Virus record (IMG/VR): IMGVR_UViG_2541047909_000002
Origin: a virus
Taxonomy: Duplodnaviria; Heunggongvirae; Uroviricota; Caudoviricetes
Length of the DNA: 16,681 nucleotides
Strand: one strand, 5' to 3'
Shown here: positions 12,503 to 14,062 of the stretch, piece after piece
Layout: every line of letters begins with the position of its first letter
Numbering within the stretch: the stretch's first letter is position 1
Translations under genes and position numbers: made by a program
Notes under the pieces: generated by a model
The model's input: the letters and a program-made list of their open reading frames with translations, nothing else
The model's database searches: none
Told to the model about the DNA's origin: nothing

Positions 12503-12799
12503 GGTGCACATACCCATTCGATGACATTTGTTTCAGGTGGTTCCAGTGGTGCTCCGGGAAGTGGATCACCTGATTATTCTAAATACAGTGTTAACACTTC
12601 TTCTGCAGGCGCTCATACGCACTCTGTATCGGGTACTGCTGCAAGCGCAGGTGCACACGCACATACTGTCGGTATTGGTGCTCATACGCACTCCGTTGCG
12701 ATTGGTTCACATGGACATACCATCACCGTTAACGCTGCTGGTAACGCGGAAAACACCGTCAAAAACATCGCATTTAACTATATTGTGAGGCTTGCGTAA
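12503..12799 (+). pseudogene. stfQ: C-terminal fragment of side tail fibre protein Stf
   Basis: Frame 2 encodes repeated GAHTHS/GAHAHT/GSHGHT motifs and ends ...[11 protein letters not shown]; out of frame with the upstream J fragment; stop overlaps the tfaQ start. Confidence 0.7.
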
Positions 12800-13374
12800 T
12801 GGCATTCAGAATGAGTGAACAACCACGGACCATAAAAATTTATAATCTGCTGGCCGGAACTAATGAATTTATTGGTGAAGGTGACGCATATATTCCGCCT
12901 CATACAGGTCTGCCAGCAAACAGTACCGATATTGCACCGCCAGATATTCCGGCAGGCTTCGTGGCTGTTTTCAACAGTGATGAGGCATCGTGGCATCTCG
13001 TTGAAGATCATCGGGGTAAAACGGTTTATGACGTGGCATCAGGGGACGCGTTATTTATTTCTGAACTCGGTCCGTTACCGGAAAATGTTACCTGGTTATC
13101 GCCGGGAGGGGAATATCAGAAGTGGAACGGCACAGCCTGGGTGAAGGATACGGAAGCAGAAAAACTGTTCCGGATCCGGGAGGCGGAAGAAACAAAAAAC
13201 AGCCTGATGCAGATAGCCAGTGAGCATATAGCGCCGCTTCAGGATGCTGTGGATCTGGAGATCGCAACGGAGGAAGAAACCTTGTTGCTGGAAGCCTGGA
13301 AAAAGTATCGGGTGTTGCTGAACCGTGTTGATACATCAACTGCACCGGATATTGAATGGCCAGCACTGCCGTAG
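12799..13374 (+). CDS. tfaQ: Tail fibre assembly protein (191 aa)
   Basis: 191-aa ORF directly following the stf remnant (TAATG overlap); matches the recalled K-12 TfaQ length and lambdoid Tfa character. Confidence 0.85.
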
Positions 13375-13471
13375 GGTAAAACATATAAATTCTATAATTA
13401 GATGTATCTCTCCATTTACGGCAAGGAAGGGGGCTTGGAAGACGTAAAGCATCTCACACCGAGATTATTTT

Positions 13472-14062
13472 TTATATGTCAGGTGTCTGAAGTTTTGCTT
13501 TGGCTCTTAAAATGGTTTGCCGCGAGGTTTTGAATTCCCGGGCAATGGCACTTATACTTACACCTGACTTAATTCGTTCGAATACCACCTGTTTCTGTTC
13601 TTCATTTAACACAGGTGGTCGACCAAAACGTTTCCCTGCGCCGCGGGCTCTTACTATCCCGGAATGAGTGCGTTCAAGTAAAAGGTCTCGTTCAAATTCA
13701 GCGACTGCTGAAATTACGTGCATCATCATTTTTCCTGTTGGACTGGTCAGGTCAATGCCCCCCAATGCTAAGCAATGCACTCTGATACCTGTTTCGGTCA
13801 GTTGTTCCACTGTTTTCCTGATATCCATTGCATTACAACCAAGGCGATCCAGTTTTGTCACAATCAATTGATCACCACATTTCAGGCGAGCAAGCAACCG
13901 GTTAAAACCAGGACGCTCACTGGTTGCTGCTGAGCCGCTAATGTGTTCTTCGATTATTTGCTGAGGTTTGATTTTAAAACCTGCACTTTCGATTTCCCGG
14001 CGTTGATTTTCGGTGGTCTGATCCAGCGTTGATATCCGACAGTAAGCAAAAATTCGAGACAT
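13472..14062 (-). CDS. pinQ: Serine recombinase, Pin-like DNA invertase family (196 aa)
   Basis: [15 protein letters not shown]... with the catalytic serine context (RIST) near the N-terminus and a C-terminal HTH; 196 aa as in K-12 PinQ/PinR. Confidence 0.9.

Follow-up and report, generated by a model that had tools for sequence, protein, structure and literature searches.

Tn3-family inverted-repeat and res remnants around pinQ, beside the tail-fibre module of the Qin prophage

Described systems and the sequences flanking pinQ

The gene pinQ of the Qin cryptic prophage of Escherichia coli encodes a small serine recombinase and lies beside stf/tfa-type tail-fibre genes, as do the recombinases of the Gin/Cin/Pin/Hin switches (Mu/D108, P1, e14). 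The closest known system was found elsewhere, namely a complete 3,815-bp Tn3-family element on the E. coli IncFIA plasmid pSJ7-2 (NZ_CP051658; positions 1823-5637 of the analysed locus L033), with relatives in Shewanella, Photorhabdus and Erwinia. This element carries perfect 38-bp, GGGG-tipped inverted repeats (IRs; GGGGTCCGCTTGGAAAACGGAAAATATCCCACGCTAAG), a 160-bp res intergenic region, tnpR and a transposase of 994 amino acids (aa; NCBIfam transpos_Tn3, 1201.8 bits against a cutoff of 500). The DNA analysed here was the 16,681-nt IMG/VR virus record IMGVR_UViG_2541047909_000002 (hereafter the window, i.e., the whole stretch at its full length), which represents the cryptic prophage Qin as present in one E. 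coli strain (integration locus ydfJ). The pinQ interval of the window is very probably an ordinary stf-tfa module with an adjacent truncated end of a Tn3-family transposon (IR, tnpR and a degenerate res), in which the arginine equivalent to Arg71 of Tn3 resolvase has been lost.

The window and the pSJ7-2 transposon were alike from res subsite II through tnpR into the IR, with 84.5% aa identity between PinQ and TnpR (both encoded between IR and res) and 82% DNA identity (blastn: transposon positions 3097-3808 aligned to window positions 14142-13433, 82.2% over 712 nt). Both had the IR directly after the stop codon and a three-subsite res before the start codon. The window differed from the transposon in having no tnpA, only one IR and a res site I without its distal half; the IR showed a 3-bp deletion and eight substitutions, the res half-sites were eroded, and the recombinase carried R76C and five other unique changes.

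Downstream of the pinQ stop codon the homology spanned the transposon IR and ended at the GGGG tip. The IR remnant (Table 1) matched the 38-bp IR of the pSJ7-2 transposon at 27 of 35 positions by hand count and was the best IR match in the window, where only one IR survives. A sequence-only reading of this locus had named CACACCGAGATTATTTT as its best, though weak, candidate for an inverted crossover site. This sequence was located at 13455-13471 and forms the inner end of the Tn3-family terminal IR, corresponding to the inner repeat end …CACGCTAAG of the intact element.

The upstream regions of nine members of the PinQ clade had in common a res-like array whose three subsites consist of TGTCCGAAA/TTTCGTACA half-sites and in which site I is 26 bp long with a 12+2+12 geometry (e.g., TGACCGAAAACGACCGGTTTCGGACA). 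The window aligned to this array with eroded motifs. The subsite III remnant sits just upstream of the pinQ start, both half-site cores of subsite II are degraded, and the transposon homology ends at the position of subsite I (Table 1). With the clade site-I matrix, the real site of the pSJ7-2 transposon scored 37.2 bits; neither the window nor 18.6 kb of phage Turner gave more than 8.6 bits, and no site was found at 14150-14175. Judged from its sequence, the res of the window is probably a remnant and not a working res.

A tblastn search with the TnpA of the pSJ7-2 transposon gave no hit with E below 3 in either the window or the 18.6 kb of phage Turner, and no second IR was found in the window; the element is therefore a truncated fossil and not a transposon. 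The copies in Rac, Qin, E. ruysiae and Turner shared the same upstream junction (at least 197 of 200 bases, except for one copy, L012, with 178 of 200) and the same downstream junction (at least 70 of 72 bases in all), which points to a single ancestral event of insertion and truncation. A consensus scan for promoters and terminators around pinQ gave nothing decisive.

The proposed course of events is that a Tn3-family replicative transposon, unrelated to the stf-tfa module, would have entered the genome of a phage ancestral to this group, a short distance 3' of tfa. The transposase side would have been lost later, so that the stretch from 13429 to about 14175 would be the right-hand end of the transposon, i.e., the IR at 13429-13463, tnpR in the form of pinQ, and the degenerate res at 14073-14175.

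Identities between proteins also set PinQ apart from the invertases. PinQ was 38% identical to PinE of e14 and 37% identical to Gin of D108, while PinE and Gin were 78% identical to each other; members of the Din clade share about 60-80% identity. PinE was itself 37.5% identical to the TnAs1 resolvase, so the distance of PinQ from the Din enzymes is that of an ordinary resolvase. By sequence similarity, the closest relatives of PinQ are TnpR resolvases of Tn3-family transposons, and PinQ does not belong to the Gin/Pin-type invertases. In Shewanella, a Tn3-family TnpR with 77% identity to PinQ (L014) was encoded divergently from a 1,033-aa protein with a Pfam DDE_Tnp_Tn3 domain (1.4e-148), and a further relative (L017) divergently adjoined a Tn3-type transposase with a DUF4158 transposase N-terminus. 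Using one genome per species, relatives at 55-78% identity were found in Shewanella, Photorhabdus, Erwinia, Mycoavidus and others, none of them beside tail-fibre genes. In PLSDB, at least 239 plasmids carried PinQ homologues at 80-90% identity.

Several further members of the family were recorded. The 61% homologue of Erwinia phage LS-2018a (L004) was considered as an intact tail-fibre switch and set aside: it had no convincing inverted repeats and its context was another one. A res-like array did lie upstream of it. Erwinia oleae (L018, 1268-2652) had two paralogous genes of the PinQ clade (72% and 78% identical to PinQ) arranged head to head, and the 203-bp spacer between them held a duplicated, mirror-image res array. 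On the E. coli plasmid NZ_CP059918 (L031, 7631-7846) a TnAs1 (Tn21-subgroup) end was inserted about 80 bp upstream of the res of a PinQ-like resolvase, in the place where the tnpA of the resolvase's own element would be. Near-identical pinQ genes also turned up on short contigs in bins assigned to Alistipes, Draconibacterium, Caldithrix and Nocardioides (L006, L010, L011 and L030); in these assemblies they almost certainly come from contaminating E. coli DNA.

The tail-fibre module, crossover sites and inversion

Within the window, pinQ and tfaQ were convergent, with the 3' end of pinQ facing tfa. Only a C-terminal stf fragment preceded tfaQ, and this fragment was fused to a J Ig fragment and nohA/Nu1. 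From 12498 on, the window matched the 3' end of full-length genes named 'prophage tail fiber', which precede tfaQ-pinQ, at 98.5% identity. No second stf/tfa set in the opposite orientation was present in the window. Gene layout and Pfam domains thus agreed with the earlier observation that pinQ abuts one set only, the stf fragment plus tfaQ.

The same order of J-lom-stf-tfa with a convergent pin was found in the viable lambdoid phages Turner, HannyBb, mEp460, 2H10, Tritos, PhiR42_1 and others, whose PinQ proteins were 98.5-99.5% identical and whose stf genes were full-length. In phage Turner a single set, consisting of J, lom, a full-length 3.4-kb stf and tfa, is followed by the convergent pin, and the DNA from upstream of pin into tfa was essentially identical to the window. 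Because viable phages share this layout, a single stf/tfa set is the native state of the phage group, with no loss specific to Qin. The stretch 12498-13374 would then be the usual one-set stf-tfa module of lambdoid phages of the Rac/Qin/Turner type, its stf truncated by prophage deletions.

Gin/Pin-type crossover sites were sought with a half-site matrix made from the Din sites gixL/R of phage D108 and pixL/R of e14, a scan that the sequence-only reading had proposed. The matrix gave 28.0-30.5 bits on its own true sites. The best 26-bp dyad in the whole window scored 12.9 bits, which is chance level (shuffle maxima 11.0 +/- 2.4), and the best within 12000-14400 scored 4.5 bits; no pair of sites emerged. 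The earlier candidate, scored as 13449-13474, reached -3.6 bits, in agreement with its having been called weak. The core AAACCNNGGTTT with up to two mismatches matched the window nine times, where 10.25 matches were expected, and none of the matches lay beside the module. A search for pairs of inverted repeats in the window found no outstanding pair. On the core count, the repeat search and the matrix together, the earlier statement that the locus has no convincing inverted crossover pair was correct.

Inversion was searched for in 5,426 complete E. coli genomes at 80% coverage, using chimeric query sequences for a flipped stf-tfa relative to pinQ and for a flipped pinQ module. Neither form was found in any genome (0 of 5,426), while the natural arrangement was present at 80% coverage or more in 1,085.

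These results bear on the view, also taken in the sequence-only reading, that a switch has decayed here, i.e., that PinQ is an invertase of the Gin/Pin/Cin type whose invertible segment decayed in Qin with loss of the second stf/tfa set and the 26-bp sites. A position beside tail-fibre genes, known from Mu, P1 and e14, would be expected of such a switch, as would the heavy deletion nearby in Qin, and the best sequence match of PinQ in PDB was Gin (2e-30, vs 3e-22 for gamma-delta resolvase). The window is nevertheless unlike those switches in most respects. The identity of PinQ to Gin and PinE is about half of that between the two, and the orientation is wrong: in e14 and D108 the 5' end of the recombinase gene abuts the crossover site, while at this locus it is the 3' end that faces tfa. 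Intact phages have the same single set, Din-type sites and a second set were lacking in the window, no inversion polymorphism was seen in the genomes, and pinQ lies between a Tn3-type IR and a res remnant. A decayed switch is accordingly considered highly improbable, and the viable single-set phages, the absence of an inverted form in the genomes and the non-Din character of PinQ all contradict it. Under the transposon-end reading the locus would never have carried a Gin/Pin-type tail-fibre switch, which would be why it has no inverted crossover pair; its sole ancestral crossover site would be res site I upstream of pinQ, now half destroyed.

Two other candidate sites were rejected. A self-inverting, hin-like pinQ segment bounded by CA(A/C)ACCGAG (13456-13464 vs about 14232-14240) rested on 8 of 9 bases only, had many equal chance repeats and was inverted in none of the 5,426 genomes. 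A near-perfect palindrome, CACAAAATCGATTTTGGG, with core CAAAATCGATTTTG, lies at 14198-14215 between ydfK and pinQ, just past the transposon homology, and is conserved in phage Turner and in the ydfJ locus of E. coli 64A:C (L034). As a shortened site I or pix-like site it was dropped, being beyond the homologous block and scoring 3.6 bits with the Din matrix; multiple alignment placed the true res homology downstream of it, at 14150-14175.

Cys76, the e14 P segment and retention of PinQ

Codon 76 of pinQ (13835-13837) is TGT, encoding Cys, where the family has CGT for a catalytic Arg, and DRLGC replaces the motif DRLGR. The last Arg of this motif was invariant in an alignment of ten clade members, PinE and the TnAs1 TnpR, with PinQ alone having Cys76. 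All eleven PinQ/PinR alleles examined, that of phage Turner included, carried Cys76, as did a diverged lineage at 84.7%. Among 120 database relatives, 112 had Arg and five had Cys, the latter being PinQ/PinR clusters and a diverged phage-type lineage (P0009, 374 members). Cys76 is at the position of Arg71 of Tn3 resolvase in the active-site set that was checked (Tn3 numbering: Y6, R8, S10, D36, R68, R71). The remaining residues Y7, R9, the nucleophile S11 and R73 were kept in PinQ, and E39 was common to the whole clade. In total, PinQ departed uniquely from six otherwise invariant clade columns, R76C included, while its nearest relatives did so at none or one.

In Tn3 resolvase, the mutations R71A and R71K abolished recombination and made cleavage at least about 1000-fold slower, with binding to the site intact (PMC2794168). 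PinQ resembles these mutants in that the corresponding position of its DRLGR motif is naturally not Arg. It is unlike them in that the residue is Cys and that PinQ is distant kin of Tn3 resolvase (phmmer E about 1e-22), so that the size of the effect is an extrapolation. Because of the Cys at the Arg71 position, strand exchange by PinQ is predicted to be severely impaired.

Five database proteins (P0003 and P0005-P0008; 86-93% identical to PinQ) combined a transposon-type N-terminal part carrying DRLGR with a PinQ-type C-terminal part. Most came from short metagenome contigs; P0008 was found in an NCBI E. coli record of 5.4 Mb. Either true recombination that 'repairs' Cys76 or, for those from metagenomes, chimeric assembly accounts for them.

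An effect of PinQ outside Qin has been published as 'recombinase-activated phage inhibition' by PinQ/PinR and StfE2 (Kirigo et al., Nucleic Acids Research 2025; PMC12529663), which concerns the same gene with a target in e14 and none in Qin or rac. PinQ overproduction raised inversion of the 1,797-bp P segment of e14 from about 30% to 88%, and this inversion creates StfE2, which blocks T2 adsorption (PMC12529663). Deletion of pinQ lowered inversion and survival of T2 infection; the PinQ effect needed stfP, stfE and e14, and inversions were found in e14 only (PMC12529663). Overproduction of PinE gave 49% inverted P, as expected at equilibrium, and a pinE single mutant was locked in the non-inverted state despite the presence of pinQ and pinR; no listed strain makes PinQ without PinE (PMC12529663).

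One account of these data is that PinQ is a fully active invertase that works in trans only and flips the e14 P segment directly at the pix sites. It fits a transposon origin of pinQ but not a catalytic defect. The level of inversion on PinQ overproduction, with its requirement for stfP, stfE and e14, and the consequences of pinQ deletion are what such an enzyme would produce, while the locked pinE mutant, together with the lack of a listed strain that has PinQ without PinE, speaks against it (PMC12529663). The 12+2+12 geometry of invertase sites is shared by clade site I, but the clade site-I matrix did not recognise the pix sites, which stayed under -4 bits where a true site reaches 37, and PinQ has Cys at the R71-equivalent position. 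A biased 88% with PinQ, compared with 49% with PinE, looks in our interpretation more like selection or modulation. Wild-type resolvases of the Tn3/gamma-delta type, furthermore, normally require accessory sites and directly repeated copies of res. A fully active trans invertase is on balance considered rather unlikely. A resemblance of the clade half-site TGTCCGAAACC to pix half-sites was tried as a cause of cross-reaction and dropped, being out of register and below -4 bits.

Direct catalysis by PinQ on the P segment is doubtful and unproven in view of Cys76, the descent from a resolvase and the low pix scores of the clade matrix, and it is no more likely than modulation or a very weak activity. 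The earlier suggestion that PinQ may act elsewhere agrees with the published effect on e14 inversion (PMC12529663), although a PinQ without its catalytic Arg may not exchange the strands itself.

The ratio of nonsynonymous to synonymous change (dN/dS) was 0.15 between PinQ and the TnpR of the plasmid transposon. Between PinQ and a diverged Qin-type Cys76 lineage, which shared the truncated res and the shortened IR of the window, it was 0.38 at dS 0.21, below the neutral expectation (p about 0.0005 in a rough binomial calculation by hand). The open reading frame (ORF) was intact in every complete copy examined, viable phages included. Purifying selection on the Cys76 lineages argues that the ORF was kept open after the Arg-to-Cys change, and PinQ has therefore probably been retained for DNA binding or regulation, or for weak activity in trans.

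That pinQ might be a neutral, functionless pseudogene-in-waiting is judged unlikely. The loss of the transposase and of a catalytic residue, and the degenerate res, would suit a dying gene, as would the six unique departures from invariant clade columns and the amino-acid changes among close PinQ alleles, which are as frequent as silent ones. The intact frames in complete copies and viable phages, the constraint on the diverged lineage, and the deletion and overexpression phenotypes (PMC12529663) are at odds with it. Two frame-disrupted copies were seen, both second pin copies at the Qin position with stop codons (L024, Shigella flexneri SFBU0723; L025, E. coli ECGI0523), so that some copies of the gene do decay. 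In L034 (6221-6811; ydfJ locus of E. coli 64A:C) the pin coding sequence had dS 0.21 and 30 aa changes relative to the window, while its flanks differed by about 2%, which suggests gene conversion or locally accelerated change.

A more far-reaching proposal, offered tentatively and with a low probability of being right, is that PinQ/PinR is an exapted 'pseudo-resolvase', a DNA-binding modulator of lambdoid phages that biases or gates the switches of other serine recombinases. A Tn3-family TnpR would have lost its own transposon, its res site and a catalytic arginine, and lambdoid phages would keep it in this role. As an example, PinQ might push the PinE-driven P segment of e14 towards the StfE2-producing orientation without exchanging strands.

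Several points weigh against the reading of pinQ as the catalytically impaired end of a transposon. At face value, the published rise in P inversion from 30% to 88% and the effect of pinQ deletion describe a catalytically active invertase (PMC12529663). The R71 mutants of Tn3 resolvase were 'not inert', and Cys was not among the substitutions assayed (PMC2794168). Taken alone, the IR remnant scored 15 against 12 for the next best match, a modest excess over background; it carries weight because it is in register with the long transposon alignment. The insertion is deduced from homology and not from target-site duplications, since only one IR survives, and an empty-site allele, queried as the joined flanks, was found in 0 of the 5,426 genomes. 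Among the near-identical PinQ alleles the differences were too few to resolve purifying selection by dN/dS.

Prophage context and significance

The features of the interval are collected in Table 1. Compared with the window, K-12 Qin was 99.85% identical over 3375-12207 and 98.5% identical over 12611-16681, its homology breaking off at window position 12207. Identical copies of the 12200-14300 region were found in further E. coli strains.

Table 1. Coordinates of features in and beside the pinQ interval of the window
Feature	Position	Strand	Remark
nohA/Nu1 end	11695-12240		Runs directly into the J Ig-domain fragment
J (tail-tip protein) internal Ig-domain fragment	12237-12504	+	Pfam Ig_J 5.9e-35; 92-94% identity to annotated gpJ genes
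stf fragment, C-terminal ~100 codons of side tail fibre gene	12498-12799	+	Pfam Phage_fiber repeat
tfaQ, tail fibre assembly gene	12799-13374	+	Points towards pinQ; Pfam Caudo_TAP 2.4e-43; annotated tfaQ in matching genomes
Tn3-family terminal IR remnant (IRR), GGGGGCTTGGAAGACGTAAAGCATCTCACACCGAG	13429-13463	+	Tip at 13429; inner end abuts the pinQ stop codon
pinQ, tnpR-type small serine recombinase	13472-14062	-	Intact 196-aa ORF; Pfam Resolvase 3.6e-36 and HTH_7
res subsite III remnant, ATATGAACACCAATTTCGTATA	14073-14094	-	Nine-region alignment and pairwise alignment with the pSJ7-2 transposon; 1 mismatch per half-site vs the plasmid transposon
res subsite II remnant, TGCACAAAAATAATCAAAATTATTTTCTGAGA	14104-14135	-	Half-site cores CCGAAA -> ACAAAA and TTTCGGAC -> TTTCTGAG
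res subsite I position, putative ancestral crossover site	14150-14175	-	pinQ-proximal half TTTCGAAC recognisable; distal half gone

The J Ig-domain fragment is debris of prophage deletions. The stretch 11695-12799 is a three-way deletion fusion, in which nohA/Nu1 is joined to the J Ig fragment (at about 12207-12240) and the latter to the last 100 stf codons (at about 12498-12504). The junction in K-12 Qin differs, nohA being joined there to a 320-aa stfQ. The fusion structure was 100% identical in FORC 064, ML35 and others. Relative to K-12 Qin the window also had a 1.3-kb insertion at 2060-3374, beside rem, which was 99.7-100% identical to copies annotated as 'IS256-like element IS1414 family transposase'.

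The locus is otherwise ordinary, a transposon fossil beside a normal tail-fibre module in a decayed prophage, and belongs to a familiar type of element. The novelty lies in its identification for a much-annotated gene and in its bearing on a recent mechanistic claim. In the library searched, no paper was found that links pinQ or pinR with Tn3. Kirigo et al. treat PinQ as a Pin-like invertase, without mention of a Tn3-family origin, the res and IR remnants or the Arg-to-Cys change, and base a new class of anti-phage defence on an active PinQ invertase (PMC12529663).

Annotations everywhere describe the genes pinQ and pinR as "Pin-like DNA invertases of lambdoid prophages", and the name "putative DNA-invertase from lambdoid prophage Rac" has been passed on to thousands of resolvases of plasmids and transposons. 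The Tn3 end, the degenerate crossover site and the lost Arg would correct the logic of this annotation and explain why crossover sites in cis have never been found.

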